Source: Mytilus edulis
Lineage: Eukaryota
DNA length: 64,000 bases
Reading direction: 5' to 3'
Assembly (NCBI RefSeq): GCF_963676685.1
Contig: NC_092349.1
Location: 64,480,001-64,544,000 of the forward strand
Shown: in pieces, positions 16,650-38,884 of the stretch
Numbering within the stretch: the first letter of the stretch is position 1
Layout: each line of letters opens with the position of its first letter
Made by a program: the position numbers and the translations under genes
Notes under the pieces: model-generated
What the model saw: only the letters and a program-made list of their open reading frames with translations
Database searches by the model: none
What the model was told of the DNA's origin: nothing

Positions 16650-19600
16650 ATGGCCACCACAGCAATGCGAACACAGACATTAACAGGTTCAATTGCCACA
16701 GAGCCAATTTTAAACATGAAACTAACAGTTCCCGTACCCCCTCAAAAAGGAGGACCAGGGAAAATAAGAAACAGACTCCGTTTAGATCCAGCGAGGGCAT
16801 TAGAACCTGCAAGAAAAAAAATAGCCACAGTTGAAGCACAGCGTGTTATGTCAGTATTTGAGGACACAATACAAAGAATAGAAATTTCCTCAATGATCCC
16901 ATACATTCTTGAAAATTTGGACAGATTTCGAATAAGCTTTGGGGTAGAACTTTGCAGCTTGCTAGAGAACCACAGTATTATAATCGGTAGTTACAATGAG
17001 ATCAAAGAACAGCTTGATAGGCAAATGCAAAGGAATAGAATACGATCAGCCAGTTCTGTCAGAAGTGATGCATCACAAGAGCAACAAAATGATATGAATG
17101 AAACTCAACCTACTGCTGAAGATGACGAAGATGAAGATTCCGTTTATGGAGGCCAAAGTCCCCCACAGAGTCCTGTTAATAAGCCTCCATCTAGAGGTAG
17201 TAGTGCTAGCAGTCGAAGATCTAATCCTTCTGTTGCTAGTTTTGACAGCCAAACAGAACGTACAATGCGGAATTTGAGTCTGGTAGCTCAGCAACTTAGT
17301 TCCTCATGCAAAAACATTCTCAGACAATTTCAAATAAATGGTAGTGCATTTAATTCTGTTAAGACCCACTTTCATGCACGACCTAAAGAGAGTACCCAGC
17401 TTTTATCTTACATGAATGATTTGAGAGATATCTTACTGAATAAACTGTTAACAACACCTGAGGAAGAAAAAGAGAGAATGGCTTACATCCAGGAAGTTTC
17501 AGAAAGAGAGAGAAACAATGCTACTATCATTGCAAAGATGGAAGAAGAACTTGATGCTGCAGTTGCTGATAAGGAAGAAGAGGTATAATATTTAGATGGA
17601 TTTAAAAATACTTGGCAAATTTTTTGACTCCAACATGTCAGTCTACATGCATCATGTTTATTGATACATTGTGGATGATATGCATTTATTAAGAGCACTG
17701 AATTATTGTATTTCAAATCATACTGGCATTCTCAATGATAAAATGTTCTCCATTTTTAGTTATAAAGTTACAGAAGTTGAATTTTTTTTAAGATTCTTGA
17801 ATCAATATTTTAAACTCAAAAACATGTAAAACTATATATAATCAAACATGTCTCATAAAATTTAAAAAGAATACTATAATTTGCCTCACTTGGTTTACAA
17901 TGATGTCTAACTTTTGCAAAGAGAACCTTTATTGTAAAAGAGAAACATTTTAAAATTTTAATGACTTTCAACTACAGATACATGTATATGTTGCCACCAC
18001 AAAATTGTGTGAATAAATTAGCAATATATACTCACAATCATCATGTACATGTAGCACAAACAGCAGAAACAAATTATTGTAGTCTGTAAAAGAGTTATTG
18101 TCAACAGTAATAGTTATACAGAAAATTATAGAAGATATGATGACAATACACATAATTAACAGCGCCTAGTGATGTTTATAGTCTGACCAGTTTGTGTTAT
18201 AGTAATAGGGGTTGGCAAGAAGTTCTATTTATTGCACATCACATTATTTTATTTAAGTTCAAAATGTATACATGTATGTATGAATTTAAACACATTATAA
18301 TAATATAAATTGTATAATGATATGACACATTATTTCATATCATACATGTCATAGATACCAGCTAGATTATTTCTTTTAAACATGTGTGTATAAAGATTCT
18401 TTCTTTCTTTTATAGATGAAGAAGAAAAATGATGTAATAAAAAAGCTACAGACAGAGTTACAACAGATTATAAACTTTTCCAAAGAAAATATAGGAAGGA
18501 TTAAGAATGAACAGGACAAACAAGAATCAGCTGATAAAAAGAACCATGAAGGCAAAGTACAAAGGCTGCAGAATGAAATAGTACAACTTAAAACCCAGCT
18601 TCAAAACCTTGTATTGGAGCATAGAGAAAAGGAACAAGATCTAAGAAGGGTAAGATACATTTTGATGCTGTAAATATCTCAAATACATACATGTAGCATT
18701 AGTATAATATATACAATGCTATTTACGAGTTAGCATATTTAAACGACGAATCCGCAGGATGAGTTCTATACATGTAAATATGTTAATGAGTAAGGCGTGG
18801 TGTATATGTTTTGTAACATCATTCAAAAGTGGCCTGGTGATTTTTTATCCAATAAAAACCCAGTGGGAATGTTGTTCCAGCCCCCTGCTTAACGTGTGCA
18901 CGTGAAAATCAATCCAGTCAATTTTTTCGAAAATCAGCCGGTTCATTCAGAACAGAGTCGTAACAAAGAGGCAGGGTTTAAATCATGGTTTAACATGAAA
19001 AATATCAGATTAAACCATAGTCTAAACTCCACCTATCTACATGAAGTTGCAAGCACAAAGTATGTCATGACTTTTTTTAATGGAATAACATATCAATCTT
19101 TCTATAATAACCATGGTTTTTCAGAAACCGAACTATTAAGCAGAATATCACGTAAAAACTTCAAAGGAAAAATGCCATATTATGTTACAAGATATATATA
19201 AATCTTGTTGAACAAAGTCAAAATAATTCTATTGTAGTATTAATAATATAATAACTGGCCTATAAAAATAACCAATACAATGACATTTATCATTTCAAAC
19301 TGCTATTTATTCAATTTTTTGGTACCAAATTCAAAGATGACATTAGCATGATTATGCATACATTGAATTTAGCTGAATTTATCATTGAAAAATTTACATA
19401 TATTCAGATTTCACATGATGTTGAATTCTGATTTAAAAATATTAAGATTGGGTATATGATTACTGTGTACATGTACTTAAAATGTATAATTATGAGACAA
19501 TTACAATCCGTTCGAAAACAAAGATAGTGGATGTAAACAAAGGCCACTGTAAATCAAATACTGTAGCAATTTAAGATTTATATAGTTATTATCTACGAGA

Positions 19601-23496: not shown

Positions 23497-26400
23497 TCAT
23501 CCAGCATTATTCTTCTGTTTTTCATACTGCTCAGGTGTCCAAGTTTTCATTTCAAATGCATGTATGATTTTCATTTCTTCTTCAATGGTAGAGTTCACTA
23601 ATCTGGAAATAAAAACAAGATTTTATTTATGTATAATACACTGTGGTCAGACACTTCAGAAAGATTTAAGTCAGTCTTACCAATATCTAGATCAATAAAA
23701 CTACACCATGAAATAATAACTGCATAACTGTTTTTTTATTATTATTATTATTGTTTAACTATTTTTTTTTTAGGGCAAACATTTTTTTTTCTCTCTGATA
23801 TTTGATTTCCTACAGTAATCACTAAGTGATGATTTGTAGTATCAAAGGCCATATTTATGATAATAACACTTGTGTTTGAGGTGCATATCTTCAAAATATA
23901 TATCGCAAAAAATATTTCAAATATAAACTCCTGCCTATTTTTGTATAGGAAATAAACCTTATAACAGCTAAAGAAGTGAAATTTTCAAACTTGCATTTTT
24001 CTTCACACAAGTGCAATTCAAAGGCCATTAGTCACAAACACTTTTTATAACTTTCTAATTAACTCATCAAAATCCTGCATTTTCTTTCTATTTTTGCTCA
24101 AGTTAACTGCATGGCAATTAAATGCAAAATGTTAGCATCAAGCTTTTCAATACAAGGCTCCGTGATGAAGACTGTACCTTGACCCATATAATGGTTTACT
24201 TTTATAAATTGTGACTTGGATGGAGAGTTGTCTCATTTAACACTCATTCCACATCTTCCTATATCTAAATAAATATACATGTAAAAAAATTTACATCCCA
24301 TTCGATATCTCTTTACTTTATATCAATTTCAACATGATCAATTACCTGTGTCTTTGTAATAATGGTTTGCCTTCAAATTGAGGTGATACAATTATAGCTT
24401 TGAACTTTGAACCACAGCCATCAGACATGTCCACAACATCCTGCAGAGTGAAAGGAAACTAGTAAATTTTCAGTGTATTCAGTAATATCAAACTTATAGA
24501 TAATATACTTCACAACATTATGGAATATTTGATGCATAGCAATAAGACAAAATACATCAGTTTAAACAAGAATATATGTCCCAGAATATCATAATGCCTT
24601 GCACACACTATCTTGAATATTATGATGCATAGGCGGATCCAGGAGCGGGGGGATTTCCTAGGAAAATTTTGGTTGATTATATAGGGAATCACTGAAGCAT
24701 AACGGGAGCGGTCCCCCCATAGGAAATGTTCTGGATCCTCCACTGTGATGCATCTATGTTTAGTGAACCACAAAATCAGGGTAAAAACTGTAATATGGCA
24801 CATATATCACTGTATACATTACACATTTCACATCACAATGAACATGTGTGCTAAGTAATAAGTTGATGTGACAAAAAAAGGAAAAAATAACATATAGTAT
24901 AGCATATTGTTATACTCCATTTGTACTTATGGTTTGTGGTTTGAAAGTTACCATATTAATGATAATGACACTTGTATTTGAGATGCATATTTTCAGAATT
25001 TATAACACTACAACAAATGATTTTTAACAACCTTGACTGGCTATACAGCCCTTGCACGGTCGGTACTATTTAATAATACTATAATACATGGTATACTCCT
25101 ATCTTGGATTGTACTATCGCAAATTTGTAGACAGATATGCAATTTTATTGGTTAGACTGTTTATTTATTTGAAGAAAACATGCTGATTTATTGCATTACC
25201 CATAATATTTAAACAAATACCAAATATTTGTGTTTTAGAATCATTTTTTTTCAACTGAGTCATTTAAGGGGAGATAACTCTTTTAGTAAAAATATTATAC
25301 TGGTCACAGTAGGAAATTTTAAATTTTTACTTGTAGCAAGAAAAAAAGTTCAGTAACACCATTTTTCTTTTTATTTTCAACATATTATAAAACATATCTT
25401 GTCACATTTTATCATGTTTATAAAATTTCAAAATTCTATCTCTTTTTATGTGTAATGGTGGTTGGTTTTACCTTATAAATTATTCATATTAAAACCACTT
25501 TGAAAAAGGATATAGCTTCTAAACTGCCGTACTGGCCGTAGCTAGTTATGAGGTTACCGGGCCTACCGGTCTTCTTCCGGTAGGACCGGCCCGTGCCGGT
25601 CTGATGACGTCAGACTATAGTTTTGCGTTCTGCACTTACGAACTGACTGAGAAAGAAAACACTGAACATCACCTTCTTCAGGTTGATATTTTTATTAAGA
25701 CTACGTTTGTAACCACCATTATGTCTCATTTCGCCATTCTAAACATTTAAAGTAGTATTATTCATTGTAAACTGTGCTTAAATTATTTGGCTGATATTAA
25801 ATCTATATTATTATTAACGACGTATTCTGTTTTCTAATATTCCGTGAACTCGGGAAAACTCATTCCCGTTACATTGGGGGCTCGTCCTTTGAAGAGTAAA
25901 ACAATGTTAAATGCTCAGGAAACAAATTTTAAATATTCATCAGGTGCGTGTTCTGATCAATACAACAGTCGTGTCAGATTTGAAGATAGGGACGTGTTGC
26001 CGGGAGAGGATTCTCGGAAATTTTATGCTCAAAAACAAACACAAAGTTTGTCTGACCAAAATTATCACACAATAGACCAGGGTGAGGATTCTCGGAATTT
26101 TAATTCTCAAAAACAAACACAAAGTTTGTCTAACTAAAATTACCACACAATAGACCAGGGTGGGTTTCGGGAGATTAACAATAATTGTTTTCAGGACAAG
26201 GGATTCACTCCTTCCTACAACAAACACAGTCCGTGTTTCTCACAAGTTCACCTTAATGGTGAAAATAGAGAATCTTTTGGGGGTAATCATAACTGTACAA
26301 ATACGGGAACATCAAATGTTGGTATACAACATAGAAGGAGACCAGATCAAATGTTGGATAGGGTTTCATTGGGAGAAAATAGAAATGTGCCTTCGCATCA

Positions 26401-29400
26401 AAGTCGACCTAGTATGCAGGTGCCAAGGAAACAAAAAGACCCAGATACATATGATGGTAAACATACTGAATGGCCTGATTACATATGCCACTTTGAGCAA
26501 GTAGCTCTTTGGAATAGGTGGTCCGAGGATGAAATGGCAGCCCAGTTAACCATGTGTCTACGAGGGAATGCCCAGCGTGCCCTTAGTGAACTCTCTAGGG
26601 AGGAATTGTTTAATTTCGAGAGGTTAAAACGTTCATTGACCCAAAGGTTCTGTCCACCTGAAAGAGAAACAGCTTACCGTTGTGAATTTAGGAACAGAAG
26701 GCGGAAAGGAGAAGAGTCAGTAGCCGATTACGGTTATGCACTAAAACGATTGGCCACCCACGCATTTCCATCAATCCCTGTTGATATAAGAGAAAGTCTT
26801 ATAATAGAGCAGTACATTTCAGGCCTACCTAATCTAGAACTCAAAAGACATGTCCAGTTTTGCCACCCAACATCACTTGATAGGGCAATATCACTTGCAC
26901 TCGAATTTGAGGCATTTGAAGGTAGTCAAAATAAACCTTTTGCAAGGAAACCAAAGGACGAGGATATTTCACCCATGTGTACGTCAATTAAGGCAAACTC
27001 AGGGTCCGACAATAACAGTTCGCAAACCTCCATGTTTTCTAAACTAATTGAGGGTATGCAGGAGATCCAAAAATCAATGCAAGCAATGATGCAAAGTCAA
27101 AGAGATAAGGGAAATTTTAGGGGAGCGCAACCTTACAAGAATCACACAAACAGGAGGAAAATACAATGTTTTTATTGTAAGGAAGAAGGACATATGAAGA
27201 AGGACTGTCCTGTCCTTGAACGTGAAGGCTTGACTTCGAATCAAAATATTAATGTACAGAGGGATAATCTTGTTGAGTCTGATCCTTTAAATTAGCCCGG
27301 ACTGAGTTGGAGGCCACAAACTCAGTCCCAAATCCTATTAGTTTTGAAAATTTTGAAAGGCCGTCGTCTTTAATTAGGTTATGTAATATTTCACAGTATT
27401 GTTGGTATGCAAATGTAAGAATGCTTAACACAGACATTAGTATGTTAATTGACACAGGATCCGATGTCACTTTGTTGTCAAGTGAAGTTTTTAAGCAATT
27501 GAACATAAGCAAGTCGTTACTGAAGGGGGTGTCGAACCAGCTCACAACTGCAGATGGCGATTCACTGGAGGTCATGGGTAGGACCACAATTCCACTTTGT
27601 TTAGGTGGAAATGATTTTGAACATTCTGTAATTGTAGCCGGCCTGGGGGGACTCTCGGGTATTTTAGGTATGGACTTTCTTTGTACGAACAGAGTGTCTA
27701 TTGACACTGCAGAAGGAAGGTTAAAATCACCAAAATTTGAGGTCAAATTAAAACGTCACGCGACGTTTAATAATGTCTGTGCTAGGGTCCATCTTACAGA
27801 TACTGTGCATATTCCTGCTAAATCTGAAGTTTTTGTAGAAGGGGAAATTAGGGGGAATTTTTACGGGAAACCTGAAGGTTGCTTAGAACCATTACCTGAA
27901 TTCAAGGGCGATACTCATCTTCTAATGCCGAAGTCAGTGGTTAATTTGTCAAAATCAAAAGTAATATTTTCAATTTTGAATCCTACAGCGGATCCGAGAA
28001 TTCTTAAAAAGAATGTACAAGTAGGGTCTGTACAACCAATTGAACAAGTTTTAAACTGCAATTTGGAATCAAGAAATCAAATAAACGATAATTTTACTTT
28101 GCCCGAAATTGTAATACCAGAGCATTTGCAACCGTTGGTCGAGCGATGCTCCGAGAAATTATCAGCAGAGGAACGAAAACGCTTAGAGAGCGTAATTTAT
28201 CAATACGCGGATATTTTTGTCGGACCGGATGGGAAGTTGGGACACACCGATCTTGTTAGACATGAAATCGACACCGGAGATAGTAAACCGATAAAATTGC
28301 CTTTACGGCGATTACCGATTATGCAGCGAGACATAGCCGAAGCAGAAATTAATAAAATGCTAAATCAGGGCATTATCGAACCAAGTCACTCGCCGTGGGC
28401 CGCTAATATTGTCTTGGTGAAGAAGTCTGACGGCTCTACTCGATTCTGCGCAGACTACAGAAAAATTAACTCTATAACGAAAAAGGATGCCTACCCCTTA
28501 CCACGCATCGACGAGTCCCTTGACGCCTTGTCTGGAGCTAAGTATTTTTGTACGGCCGACATGGCAAGTAGTTTCCATCAAGTTTCTGTAAAACAAGAAG
28601 ACAGAGAGAAAACGGCATTTATCACGCATAAAGGCCTTTTTCAATTCAAACACATGCCTTTTGGCCTCGCCAATAGTCCAAAGACTTTCGAACGCCTAAT
28701 GGAATTAGTAATGTCAGGTCTGCAGTGGGAAAAATGTCTTGTCTATCTGGATGACGTTATTATTTTTGGAAAAACTTTCACACAAACATTAGAAAATTTA
28801 GTTTCGGTATTTGATCGATTTCGTAGTGCTAATCTTAAATTAAAACCTAAGAAATGTGCTTTCTTCAAGGACGAGATAAAATATCTAGGACACATCGTAT
28901 CTGAGTTTGGCGTTCAGTGCGATCCAGGAAAAATAGAGGCCATTAGAAACTGGCCTAAGCCTCATAACGTTGGTGATGTCCGTAGCTTTCTAGGTATAGC
29001 GTCGTACTATAGGAAATTTATTCCTAATTTTTCCGATGTGGCGTTCCCGTTAACCCAGCTCACTCGGAAAAATCAAAAGTTTAAGTGGACAGAGAGTTGC
29101 GTTGACGCTTTCGACCGCCTTCAAAATGCCTTAACAACAACGCCGATTCTAGCATATCCAACTCGCGAAGATTTATTCATTTTGGATACCGATGCCAGCC
29201 TTTACGGTATCGGAGCTGTCCTTTCGCAGGTACAAAACGGAGAAGAGCGCGTTATTGCTTATGGCAGTAAAACACTGTCACGGTCTCAGATAAAGTATTG
29301 CACAACTTACAGAGAACTTTTAGCGGTGGTTGTATTTGTAAAGCAGTTCAAGCATTACCTCTACGGTAGAAACTTTCTTCTGAGGACAGATCACTCCTCG

Positions 29401-32400
29401 TTAGTTTGGCTAAAAAACTTTAAGGAACCGGAAGGAATGGTAGCTAGGTGGATATCTCTGTTAGACACTTACGACATGACCATACAACATCGGAAGGGCA
29501 ACGCGCATGGGAACGCAGATGCACTTTCACGAGTGCCTAGACGACGTTGTAAACGTGATAACTGTTCAGAATGCATAAGTAATATGCCGTGCACTGTTAG
29601 CGCTATCAACTCAAATTCAGGGGATTCAGAGCAACCAACTTCAAAGACAAAAATCGTGTCCGATTCAAACTGGGTACAACAATGGGGTGCAGAGGATATA
29701 CCTAGACTGCAGCACAAAGACAGTAATATAGCTACTGTATTGCACTATCTTACACACAGTACTGAAAAACCACAGATCAGTACTCCCGATCAGGATATGT
29801 CTGCCTTACTGCGGCAGTGGGATTTGCTCTTCATCCGTGATGATTTGCTCTGTCGTAAATTCTTTGAAATCGATGGTTCGGTTACCAATCAACTCGTGGC
29901 ACCAAGAGAATTGCGTAAGGACATTATGCTCCAGTTGCACAACAATCGGACCGCTGGTCACTTAGGACGGGAAAAAACTTTAAATAAAGTTAGGTCACGG
30001 TTTTATTGGCCGTGTATGACAAGCGATATAAGTCGATGGTGTCAGACTTGTCCCTCTTGCGCGAAGCGGAAAAGGGGACCAGGAAAGGGGAAGTATCCCA
30101 TGCAACATTACACTGTTACTCGTCCGCTTGAGTGTATTGCTATAGATATTATGGGGCCGTTGCCACAAACAGACAACGACAATGAATATATTATGGTAAT
30201 TGGAGACTATTTCAGTAAATGGAAAGAGGCGTATGCTTTGAAAAATCATACAGCGCAAGCGGTAGCAGACAAATTAGTAACTGAGTTCATTTGTAGATTT
30301 GGGGCACCGACAAGAATACATACTGACCAAGGAAGAGAATTTGAGTCTAATCTATTTTCGGAAATTTGTAAACTCCTAGGAGTGGAAAAGTCGCGTACTA
30401 CTCCATACAGACCGCAATCAGACGGTATGGTGGAAAAGTATAACCATACTGCCCAAAATATGTTGGCAATGTATGTGGATGAAAATCGCACAGACTGGGA
30501 CGACCACTTGCCTTTTATAATGATGGCATATCGTGCCGCGGTACACGAAAGTACCAAGTGTACACCAAATTTGATTATGTTGGGGAGGGAAGTATGTCTG
30601 CCTATAGACATAATTGCTGGCACACCGCCTAGTGAAACAGAGTTTGAATGTCCTATTAAATATGTAGAATGGATTAAGGATGCTATGCAAGAGTCTTTTG
30701 CTTTTGCCCATGAGAAATTAGAAGCAAGTTTTCTTCGACAAAAACGTTTTTACGACGTCAAGCTTAAAATTCGTTCCTTCGAAAAGGACCAGTTAGTGTG
30801 GTATTGGTATCCCCCACATGCAAAACGGAAATTAGGCGTCGGTTGGACCGGTCCATACAAAATTATAAGAAAAATTTCGGAGGTCACTTATCAGATCGAG
30901 TCGAGTCTAACAAAGAAAATGAAAATCGTACACGTAGACCATTTAAAAAGAGTAGAAGGAAACGGCTTCAAAAATGAACTGTCAAATGTCGATTCAAGCC
31001 TCGCGACCTTAATGGATCAAGGATCTCTGGAACATGTAAACTTGAACACAGAAGAACACCATTCCGTTTCTTACACTGAAGATGAAACAGTTTTAGATAA
31101 CTGTACAGTCAAAAATAACATGAATAAAGACAATGTTGTACATAAGGCCAATTAAAATTAATTGATAGATTTTCATCCCCGCCCGCCCCTCTGAAATCAT
31201 CCCGCCCCAATTTTTTTTATTTTAAAAAAATTACGATTTCCGGATTTGTTCGTTTCCTTTTCCGGTAACCGTCAATAATTTCGTTTCATTCAAAACTTCC
31301 TGTTGCAAATTTCGGTTTTCGTATTTCTTCCAGTAATTTAAAATGATTCTGCAGCTCTATGATGACAAAATCATCTACCGAGAATAGAGATTGATTACGA
31401 GAAGGGCATGAAATAATCAAGTAATACGCTGTGTTCAAGAACACGATTCCCGGCATGACACACATTTCTGTGATAAGAAACCCGTTGATTTTTTATAGAT
31501 AAAATGACTTTGTGTCAGGAATGTTGGACTGTGAATTATATCCAAAGAGCAAGAATCGTAGAACACATTGTTACAGAAGCATGACTGGATTATACAAATT
31601 GACACAAGCACAAACTTATTAGATTTATGACAGTATATTGAGTTCAAAAAATCAGCAAACATACACTTTACCCATGGCTATTGGATATTTTTTGTTGACA
31701 AACAGCAAACACCTTCTGTCCCAATACCCTCAATAGAGTCATTAAACAACTTCTTCTTTTCCGTTAAGTTCATGTTTTACATATTAATTATATTTGCATC
31801 TATAAGAAGAATCATAAAAGCTCCAACCCTATTATTTTCAAAACTGTTTGAGTTTTCATTTTATTCTGTACTCATAATTCTTGTGTTGCATACCAATGCA
31901 TATTGGTTTCAATTTATGGAGACAAAAACATCGCTTTAATAGAAAGACAAATAATTTGGTGAAGGTAGTCCAACTGAAGAGAGCATTTCTCTACGTTTTT
32001 GCTGTTTATCAAAAATAGGTTTCTAAAGCAGCAATTGCAGAACAGTGGTTGCCAATCAAAGATTTTTATTTAAGATTTGAAAAAATATGTACGATTCCTT
32101 ATACATGCATATACATGATATAAGCTTATTATTACACATGCATATATGAAGAACAAGTCACAAGAGGGTTTCATAAGAAATAAAAAATAAAAAATAAAAT
32201 CCTCCCACCCGCCCCATTTTTTTCAAAAATTTGGATGAAAATCTACTTATTAATTTTAGTTGGCCTAACTCTCCTAAATACAGCACACGGGGTCGCTTGA
32301 TACGACCAAAACTTCAATTTTCACTATAAATTAGCTTTCTTATGAAATCTTTTGAACATAGTTTTTTTTTTGTAATATCCGAATAAACTTTAGACCTACA

Positions 32401-35400
32401 TTATGTAGATATATCATAAGGCTGTGACCGGGAATGCTAGGAATTTACATGTACGTTTGTACATTTTATTTACCATGGGCCTTTTCGTATGAGCTTTCGG
32501 TAATGTGCAGATATATATAGGAGAATTTAGCTGCCTTTTTGTAAGGGTAGGGGAATAAGGTCAGGTTAGACGTCAACCTGATTTTATTATTTTGGAAGCT
32601 GGGAACGCTTCTTATAGCATGTGAACAGTCAGCATTGATGTCTACATAATGATAGATAAAAATAAAATAAGTATAAATCGTAGGAATCTAACCAGAAAAA
32701 CTTTTACACCTATTATACTAAACATTTTTTGAAGTATCTCTCTTATTCACAGCATGGAAAATCAGGATGTATTGGAATACAACGAGGAAGAAATGGATAC
32801 AGAGATGTCGGAACTGACAAAAAGCATTGAATTTTTCTTTAAACCTGGGGGACGAATGCAATGTCCGGTGGAAGATTGTGGCGCTAAGTCCTTTGAAAAC
32901 AGAACCAAGTATCAGAGACATTGGGAGGAAAAACACACTATGAAGTGTGTGAAGTATGAATGTTCAGTAGCCGGTTGTTTAGCGTCCTGTAGAAGGAAAC
33001 ATGACATCAAAATCCATTTGGTTCGCCAACATTATATGACAGATATGAGATTGATACAGTCTGCCGTAGAGAAATGCCAAAAAACACAAAGGAACAACAA
33101 AGGGTTTATTGACCCTGGTTTTTTTATATACAAAAACAGAGTGTTGGTACCTGATTCTGCCGGATCAACAGAGAGAGAAAATTCATCTAACACAAGTTCA
33201 GCCAAGCAAGTATCACCTTCACCTTCAGACAAAGCTGCTCAGGATTCATCTTCACTTTCAGTCAGGTCTACTAAGCAGTTATCATCCGTTGTGATTTCTA
33301 ACCGGCAGTCAGCTTCTTCAGATGTGAATCCCACTAAGCACCTAGGCTCTAATTCCGTAGTTTCAGTCCGTCTGGTATCATCACCCACTCCATCTATATC
33401 ACTAATTTCATCTGTTCTAGCAGCTACAGGCAACCCTTCTAATGAGGATGATGGACCTGAGTTTACAGTGTCAGTTCCGAGGAAGTTCCCAACCACTTCA
33501 TCTAGAATTTCTTTGTCTAATTATCAGAAAAGATCTTACACTACTTCTACCGCTACTACTGCAACAGATACCACTTCTACAGATACTACGTCAACATATA
33601 CTACTTCCACGGACACTACTGCAACATATACCACTTCTACAGATACTACTGCAACAGAGACTACTTGTACAGCTACTACTTCAACAGCTATTGATAGGAC
33701 TTATAATACCTCCTTTGGGTATTCTGCCATTGCTATTACTGAAAGTTCCAGCCAGACGTCCTGCCTGGATTACCCTCCGATTCAGCTGCCTGCCATCCCA
33801 GAGAGTGAGACTGAGTTATCTTTATATCTTTTATTCCTATCAAATAGTATGGACTCTCTGGGAAGGACGAGGCAGGTTGCTAAGGAAAGGTTAGAGACTA
33901 TCAGGAAAGAGGGTTCCAAACTTGAGGTCGAAAGAAAGAAGAGGAGAGAGGTTGAGGTGGAGAATCGCCGTTTACTCACAGAACTTGCCGAATTAAAATG
34001 GAAGGACCAGCAATTCAGACATATGGAACCGTAATTCTTTTGTTTTGTGGAACAATAGTTATTATATATGACTGACTTATTGTGAAATTGTTGAGTGTTC
34101 ATTATTTATATATTTATTAAGAAAGTTGGTTGGAAAAGTTAATTGACTGTATTTTGTTGAATTTGAAATTGAAATATGTGATAAAAATTTCTAAGAATTC
34201 AAATTGATTTAAGAAATTTAAATAGAAATCAAGGTAAATAGTTTTGGAAATGAAATTTTTTATTGATTTTCTTTGATGTTAATTAAGTGCTAAAGTTAAA
34301 ACATAATTAAGGACTTGGTAAATCTACTTACATGCTTTCATATTATATGTACTTTGATCTATTCTATTGAATATTTTATCGTTGGACTAATGTCGTCCCG
34401 ACATTAGGTCTTAAGAGAGGGGGAGTGTAATGGTGGTTGGTTTTACCTTATAAATTATTCATATTAAAACCACTTTAAAAAAGGATATAGCTTCTAAACT
34501 GCCGTACTGGCCGTAGCTAGTTATGAGGTTACCGGGCCTACCGGTCTTCTTCCGGTAGGACCGGCCCGTGCCGGTCTGATGACGTCAGACTATAGTTTTG
34601 CGTTCTGCACTTACGAACTGACTGAGAAAGAAAACACTGAACATCACCTTCTTCAGGTTGATATTTTTATTAAGACTACGTTTGTAACCACCATTATGTC
34701 TCATTTCGCCATTCTAAACATTTAAAGTAGTATTATTCATTGTAAACTGTGCTTAAATTATTTGGCTGATATTAAATCTATATTATTATTAACGACGTAT
34801 TCTGTTTTCTAATATTCCGTGAACTCGGGAAAACTCATTCCCGTTACATATGCATAAAAATGAGTTTTTGCATGATCATTCTAAGCAAATTTAGAAAATT
34901 TTCAACAACTCATAGCTTGAAAAATAGCAGGGTGACCCATCCTTTTTATTATACATTAAAAAAATCTATCTAGGGGGGAAACTTTTTTAATGTGACCACA
35001 ATATTTGGGACAAAAAGGGATAATTTTTTTTTAAAGATTTGTATAGGGTTACTGTGTTATAGTAGTCTCAGACTACAGTAACGTTATTTTTTATTTTATT
35101 GAATTTAAATTTGTTTTCTTGCAAAGCAGATATATAGGTATATTCATAGGGCTTGACTCGCACAGGCACTTGTTTCTTTCCATTGGAAGACCCACTATCA
35201 ACGTATGTAAATATACGTTGATAATAGGTCTTCCAATGGATAGAAACAAGTGCCTGAGTTGACTAGTCATGCTCGTTGCAAATGTTAGCTTGTTCTAGAT
35301 TTTGACTTTAAATAGTGGATATTTTAAAAACATTTCTGCAATGACAAGTGTTTGTGATTTTAGCTGTTACATATATTTACTGTACAATACTCTCAGACAA

Positions 35401-35758: not shown

Positions 35759-38884
<3,126 letters not shown>

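Follow-up and report, generated by a model that had tools for sequence, protein, structure and literature searches.

A Ty3/gypsy LTR retrotransposon spans positions 25451-34848 of the window, i.e. of the whole 64,000-nucleotide stretch of Mytilus edulis DNA that was analyzed (Table 1). Two TG...CA LTRs with 1 mismatch in 423, a primer binding site (PBS), a polypurine tract (PPT) and a target-site duplication are all present, and the coding regions follow the gypsy order, with gag (capsid and zinc knuckle in 26351-27295) preceding the protease, reverse transcriptase (RT), RNase H and integrase. A third open reading frame, ORF3, lies downstream of pol on the same strand. The element is flanked by long host exons (16650-17588 and 35759-38884), which we take to be similar to a subunit of the dynein regulatory complex and to a SelO-type protein.

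The window copy is young but damaged. A MITE, which is absent from the sister copies and from two sequencing-run contigs, is nested in the end of pol; by comparison with the sister copy L021, about 877 bp after the PBS are gone, the start of gag included, and the gag remnant carries a stop at 26135. The MITE, presumably PIF/Harbinger-like, belongs to a high-copy family with GGCC ends and 3-bp TAA, TTA or ATA duplications (961 candidates in the genome, 40 of them scored) that is common in RNA reads. In two near-identical copies, namely the window copy (25885/25886) and L135, the deletions start exactly at the PBS end and resume at a short look-alike, as would be expected from mispairing at plus-strand transfer. 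L135 (G000:C3:93936257-93940829) has the structure LTR-ORF3-LTR, with a CTTA duplication, LTRs that are 99.8% alike and a 1.8-kb insertion in ORF3.

Table 1. Features of the retrotransposon, in window coordinates
Feature	Position	Strand	Basis or remark
Left target-site duplication TATG	25447..25450	+	Read from sequence
5' LTR, 423 bp, TG...CA	25451..25873	+	1 mismatch to 3' LTR
CCGG x5, 9-11 bp apart, in an LTR region that is likely U3; candidate ORF3 binding array	25557..25599	.	Motif count
TGACGTCA, presumably a CRE-like host factor site	25605..25612	.	Sequence
Candidate splice donor cag/GTTGAT inside the LTR, upstream of ATTAAA	25679..25687	+	Score -1.4, weak
Primer binding site, presumably of tRNA-Pro type	25874..25887	+	~877-bp deletion (vs L021) begins at PBS end
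gag lacking its start, with a stop at 26135 inside a 78-bp tandem duplication	25907..27295	+	ORF and domain scan
pol (protease, RT, RNase H, integrase), end interrupted by nested element	27421..31155	+	ORF and domain scan
Nested 1120-bp MITE, 34-bp inverted ends, TAA duplication; not part of ORF3	31146..32265	.	Repeats, genome copies
Acceptor-like stretch: tactaaac, pyrimidine tract, cacag	32716..32752	+	Sequence
ORF3 (426 aa), made up of an acidic start, the finger module, a Ser/Thr linker containing 15-bp repeats and a helical tail	32754..34034	+	
Module of ~100 aa: two C2H2 fingers, extra helix, N..(F/Y)xDPG strand	32826..33140	+	Alignment and model
Conserved ORF3 tail (QT..PxIP and long helix), predicted antiparallel homodimer	33753..34031	+	Profile and model
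Polypurine tract	34412..34425	+	
3' LTR	34426..34848	+	
Right target-site duplication TATG	34849..34852	+	

ORF3 and its distribution among gypsy families

ORF3 lies inside both LTRs and is intact, with no stop in frame, as described in the earlier note, and the other sequence features listed there were found again: two atypical fingers (C-x4-C-x13-H-x4-H, aa 37-61, and C-x4-C-x12-H-x4-H, aa 70-93), the NKGFIDPG stretch (aa 115-122), a Ser/Thr-rich region (aa 131-335, 44% Ser+Thr) and a basic tail (RKKRR at aa 394-398). The protein is not env-like: no membrane helix is evident because the highest 19-residue hydropathy is 1.21, no signal peptide is evident, the N-terminus is acidic (net charge -8 over aa 1-24), and the domain scan detected no Pfam env family. 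Indeed, no Pfam family reaches the cut-off for ORF3, all matches being sub-threshold.

The genome search with the finger module yielded 35 matches that are covered by 31 fetched loci. In 19 of these, pol is found upstream of ORF3, with RT identity ranging from 98% down to 56%, and the remaining 12 represent fragments of these families or derivatives that arose from them by deletion (L047 was matched to L062 by eye). Comparison of the window copy with diverged copies gives dN/dS values of 0.07, 0.17 and 0.15 for the module (three copies), 0.12 and 0.15 for the tail and 0.50-0.52 for the linker; the values in other ORF3 families are mostly 0.10-0.27, and the integrase yields 0.05 with L023 and 0.31 with L033, a decayed copy. 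Comparisons of near-identical copies give no selection signal (0.7-1.2 on few changes). The earlier note had considered that sister copies might lack ORF3 or decay neutrally, or that the ORF might belong to a separate nested element; in fact, ORF3 is present in the sisters and evolves there under purifying selection, and no nested element has a target-site duplication of its own apart from the MITE, which lies upstream of ORF3. ORF3 is a gene of the element that is held under purifying selection in sister families. Named relatives belong to Mytilus galloprovincialis (99% within the module), M. edulis and M. coruscus, and some genes annotated as 'C2H2-type domain-containing' in Mytilus are retrotransposon genes. 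Scans of metagenomes with the window module and with P0136 gave no match, and a scan of viral sequences gave a single match, without a locus.

The breadth of this arrangement was assessed on loci chosen by integrase alone (80 of 150 integrase matches, 6.5 kb each, hand-picked over ranks 10-149, with loci already analyzed and some near-duplicates skipped). In 53 of these 80 Mytilus gypsy copies, a C2H2-like motif follows the integrase core at a distance of 300-3000 nt (two of the 53 look spurious), compared to 5/80 on the opposite strand and 5/80 further downstream. Thus, a zinc-finger third gene is common over dozens of gypsy families in one animal genome, and ORF3 marks a large group of families rather than the single element of the earlier note. 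The integrase tree has one branch (support 97) for which the DPG-type module is a marker, 26 of its 29 rows carrying it.

In the family ORFs, the fingers come first and are followed by varied tails, namely a coiled coil, short tails, BTB_2 and three unnamed kinds. With seven tail types assigned by eye and a quick integrase tree, each type occupies one side of a branch of this tree, and 6 changes of tail type are required compared to a mean of 41.2 after shuffling. The BTB_2 domain (KCTD-type), a known oligomerization module, scores above the Pfam cut-off at the C-terminus of all three tested ORF3s of a sister group (L091, L121, L124), which have an N-terminal finger. Three more tails are conserved, characterized by LPDG.., PPARR.. 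and a short terminal hairpin-like motif (L101, L108, L113, L120, L122; L119, L125-L128; and L065, L070, L073, L074, L090), and no Pfam families were detected in seven scanned members of these three types.

These observations bear on the view of ORF3 as a neutral passenger or as a piece of some separate nested element. Several genomic copies of ORF3 are broken, as a passenger would be; however, the frame has no repeats or target duplication of its own, acceptor-like sites in front of it are conserved (see below), dN/dS is low, and the tail types follow the integrase tree. Purifying selection and the tracking of the integrase tree by the tail types exclude the neutral passenger, and we consider the probability of this view as a whole to be close to nil.

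ORF3 can nevertheless be lost, and at least three families spread after its loss. Near L088, a deletion of ~1 kb is common to 6 copies (6/7 lack ORF3), near L070, 4 copies share a loss relative to L070 (4/6 lack ORF3), and no finger ORF follows pol in a group of 10 near L090. Conversely, derivatives without pol but with ORF3 exist and have also transposed. L049:4308-9374 measures 5 kb, has LTRs of 1315 bp and lacks pol, but retains the gag start and a finger ORF; a second copy at G000:C14:41126150-41128385 is 97% alike over the common stretch. We also observe two tandem finger ORFs after pol in L039, L042 and L044, each with an acceptor-like site, an arrangement that resembles the alternative acceptors of complex retroviruses.

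The excess of ORF3-less over ORF3-bearing derivatives near L088 and L070 is what a copy-number brake would produce, i.e. an ORF3 that binds the LTR but represses the element, and BTB-zinc-finger proteins are often repressors. The acidic N-terminus, the selection on ORF3 in many lineages and the transposition of pol-less derivatives that retain only ORF3 argue against such a brake, which appears quite improbable. Because some families spread after losing the gene, ORF3 would instead act as an optional, trans-acting booster of its element.

The finger module, the tail and the LTR motif

All eight zinc ligands, a Trp and the PG dipeptide are invariant in 11 module sequences that are 19-49% identical, and in the AlphaFold2 model (pLDDT 89.5) two fingers are packed with an extra helix and a closing strand. 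Judging from the invariant Cys2His2 ligands and the predicted finger fold, ORF3 is a C2H2 zinc-finger protein. The best fold matches of the module are DNA-binding finger pairs, all of them weak and covering only about 60 of the 116 module residues, in particular CTCF (Z 5.1, rmsd 2.7, 59 aligned) and tramtrack (Z 4.8, rmsd 2.6, 62 aligned), whereas TFIIIA is the top PDB sequence match. Foldseek at E 0.001 gave no match for the module in PDB or BFVD and none for the tail in PDB; in a protein atlas search the module hit generic C2H2 clusters and the tail nothing above 0.81. The module shares the finger fold and the base-reading positions with CTCF, tramtrack and TFIIIA but, unlike classical C2H2 factors, adds a helix and the N..(F/Y)xDPG strand, and no Pfam family reaches the cut-off.

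A profile search of 1.84 billion proteins gave 27,856 matches at E 0.001, and the best 150 of these comprise Mytilus ORF3s, many generic poly-finger proteins and large module-array proteins. The latter (P0012-P0038, P0078, P0104) carry 2 to 17 full copies of the ~95-aa module, and the named ones come from the freshwater mussel Sinanodonta and from the gastropods Gigantopelta, Elysia and Haliotis; RRM or G-patch domains are present in 3 of the 27 that were scanned. A double-finger module of ~95 aa that corresponds to no Pfam family and is present in mollusc host proteins is thereby defined. By eye, the ORF3 tail seemed plausibly homologous to those of the Haliotis RRM proteins, but the tail profile scored none of them and the idea was dropped.

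The presence of the same module in host arrays raises the possibility that ORF3 serves as a decoy or counter-defense against these proteins, or that it recruits a ubiquitin ligase through its tail, given that BTB_2 tails are found in a sister group and that KCTD-type BTB domains can bind Cullin-3. We regard this as unlikely: the finger-2 residues of the host modules are not conserved like those of ORF3 (see below), and the ORF3 tail profile matches none of the host proteins.

The conserved tail is predicted to form one long helix and to pair as an antiparallel dimer (score 0.44 compared to 0.00 for the best of three controls, pLDDT at least 80, 84% of contacts in agreement between runs). In calibration on microbial proteins, 21 of 30 solved pairs and 0 of 23 single chains attained the dimer mark, and among animal proteins 7 of 16 pairs did; given that only 7/16 animal pairs reach it, the score supports binding between the tails of ORF3 but does not show it. 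A DNA-binding dimer of this kind could also tether the integration complex to chosen genomic sites, one of the roles proposed in the earlier note. There is no common target sequence in the two copies compared (TATG in the window, CTTA in L135), the proposal found no support, and a tether seems very improbable.

The residues at the base-reading positions point to a specific DNA motif. In finger 2, Arg at -1 is combined with Asp or Glu at +3 in 13 of the 31 family-level ORFs that could be parsed (finger 2 was unparsed in one of 32, and some registers in distant groups may be off), including 4/4 families with the coiled-coil tail, compared to 3/425 generic fingers and 1/68 host modules. ORF3 of the window has Arg -1 and Asp +3 in finger 2, and Lys +3 and Arg +6 in finger 1; under the zinc-finger recognition code, this pair would read about nCGG(G/T).

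Although the LTRs of the four coiled-coil families can barely be aligned to one another, CCGG stands out in them as the 4-mer with the strongest enrichment (38 occurrences on both strands compared to 9.2 in shuffles, z 7.4). The cluster had been noticed before the motif was derived from the fingers. These families form one clade and so do not amount to four independent tests, and for one of the LTRs, taken singly, the enrichment is not significant, its count being matched in 144 of 1000 shuffles. Within the first 350 nt of the LTR, CGG(G/T) occurs 8-9 times in the four coiled-coil families compared to 0-4 times in 14 other families, in a comparison from which 18 of 36 rows without a PPT were left out and in which some PPT calls are unsure. 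The correspondence has exceptions: L126 and L128, from another tail group, combine Arg -1 and Asp +3 with few CG in the LTR stretch examined. Furthermore, CTTCCGG presumably is also a host ETS-type site that overlaps the motif.

On balance and with moderate confidence, ORF3 can be viewed as a probable dimeric LTR-binding factor that activates its element or counters silencing. The dimer would recognize the CCGG cluster in its own LTR, occupying the phased sites, and keep the element transcribed; the acidic N-terminus would recruit activators, or the dimer would shield the CpG-rich promoter from silencing. Of the roles put forward in the earlier note, those of LTR regulator and anti-silencer thus gain indirect support from the finger-2 residues, the predicted tail dimer and the CCGG cluster. 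A broader proposal, which is tentative, is that a large branch of animal gypsy elements consists of 'complex' retrotransposons, in which each family would possess its own sequence-specific zinc-finger factor, with swappable oligomerization tails and a co-evolving LTR motif array, that switches the family on or shields it. If this is the case, the system would be a mirror image of the KRAB zinc-finger arms race in which the transposon owns the fingers, and the module would be common to transposon factors and an undescribed family of mollusc tandem-array proteins. The many natural pairs of protein and LTR lend themselves to testing a finger-to-motif code, and families with and without the gene can be compared.

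Expression of ORF3

The acceptor-like stretch in front of ORF3 reported in the earlier note is present: tactaaac occupies 32716-32723, and cacag runs up to 32752, which leaves 1 nt before the ATG. Other families do not conserve tactaaac letter for letter, so its role as a branch point is plausible only. YAG is found within 12 nt of the ATG at 12/12 ORF starts of the first set, and a strict acceptor test, written after the sites had been seen, is passed by 10 of these 12 starts compared to 4-7% of background positions. In the set picked by integrase, 38/45 ORF starts have YAG within 12 nt and 29/45 pass the strict test. The distances from acceptor to ATG are 1 to 12 nt and fall in all three phases, so that the first exon is likely non-coding. 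An accessory gene encoded by the element that is not env and has its own acceptor-like site, as the earlier note proposed, is supported by these data.

The donor suggested in that note, cag/gtgcgt at 25943/25944, is rejected: in the undeleted sister L021 it falls 855 nt into gag, 947 nt beyond the PBS, and would join gag out of frame with ORF3. In three sister families, the LTR donor that scores best or joint best precedes a poly(A) hexamer and is 181-195 nt away from the LTR end, and the window LTR has a site at the same distance that is weak by the scoring matrix (cag/GTTGAT, -1.4). The site with the best window score by this matrix (ccg/GTAGGA, 4.5) was set aside because it is upstream of the CRE-like site and probably in U3. 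Translation would start at the ATG of ORF3 itself, on a spliced RNA with a non-coding first exon and probably a donor in the 5' LTR.

No junction at 32753 was found in four sequencing runs, in which raw-read depth is near 0-1 over ORF3 and contigs drop rare forms. In run X1, which like X2 is RNA by guess only, a single contig of 8.8 kb with a depth of 71 covers the family of the window element and crosses the ORF3 acceptor unspliced. The high-copy MITE in the same run has low depth and is fragmented, as would fit transcription of the full-length element.

Elements that make spliced RNA must also export the unspliced form, and ORF3 might be a CERV- or Rev-like factor that binds unspliced element RNA for nuclear export or shifts the balance between spliced and unspliced RNA. 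The CCGG dyad of U3 is also near the RNA 3' end and could be an RNA element, RRM or G-patch domains co-occur with the module in host proteins, and TFIIIA, the top sequence match, binds both RNA and DNA. A precedent in the same position is CERV of the C. elegans Ty3/gypsy element Cer1; as given in the accessible part of its description, this RNA exporter is a large protein encoded by multiple exons, with sequence in common with Gag and a possible C4 finger, and no homologs outside nematodes are reported (PMC10309623). Several features of ORF3 speak against an exporter: two patterns detect no leucine-rich export motif, finger 2 retains the base-reading residues, and the loss of ORF3 in at least three families that spread argues against a strict need in cis, even if supply in trans is possible. 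A CERV-like factor in particular would be expected to show a Gag-exon fusion, whereas acceptor and ATG are 1 to 12 nt apart in all phases in the mussel elements. We assign a low, if appreciable, probability to a role in RNA export, and retain the LTR-binding factor as the preferred reading.

Comparison with known systems

Accessory genes in the env position are a known kind. The env gene of errantiviruses and retroviruses occupies the position of a third gene with an acceptor in front, and ORF3 is like env in both respects, differing in that no membrane helix or signal peptide is evident. Accessory regulators are a mark of complex retroviruses, and few have been characterized in LTR retrotransposons, CERV being one. 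The titles and abstract starts searched describe no mollusc gypsy element with a C2H2 third gene; prior annotation is possible in Repbase, Dfam, GyDB or subscription journals, which were outside this search. The word 'zinc' is absent from the main text, as accessible, of three surveys of mollusc and annelid transposons, the supplements of which could hold annotations (PMC6238403, PMC10294476, PMC8220671). By description, ORF3 and CERV differ, ORF3 having its own ATG right after an acceptor at mixed phases and two C2H2 fingers.

To our knowledge, there is no sequence link between ORF3 and Tas of foamy viruses, and the likeness between them concerns the arrangement. Tas, according to the available part of the account, is an accessory transactivator produced from a subgenomic RNA, with target elements in U3 (PMC5035957). 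The major donor of foamy viruses is located in the LTR, upstream of the poly(A) signal (PMC3694450), and the candidate LTR donors of the mussel elements are placed in the same way. In contrast to the mussel elements, foamy viruses are retroviruses with env and an internal promoter, and their LTR strictly needs Tas in the part of the account available, whereas ORF3 can be lost (PMC5035957).

The second comparison is with VANC21 and VANC6 of VANDAL transposons, for which anti-silencing depends on a short motif present in many copies in the own family; the anti-silencing proteins covered in the accessible part of that review are from plant DNA transposons, and demethylation by VANC has been shown (PMC6719617), whereas the likeness of ORF3 to VANC lies in the motif cluster. 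This trait, a motif cluster in the own element, which Tas and VANC have in common, is present in 4/4 coiled-coil families in the form of the CCGG cluster. By analogy, ORF3 most likely works like Tas or VANC while being a member of neither family.
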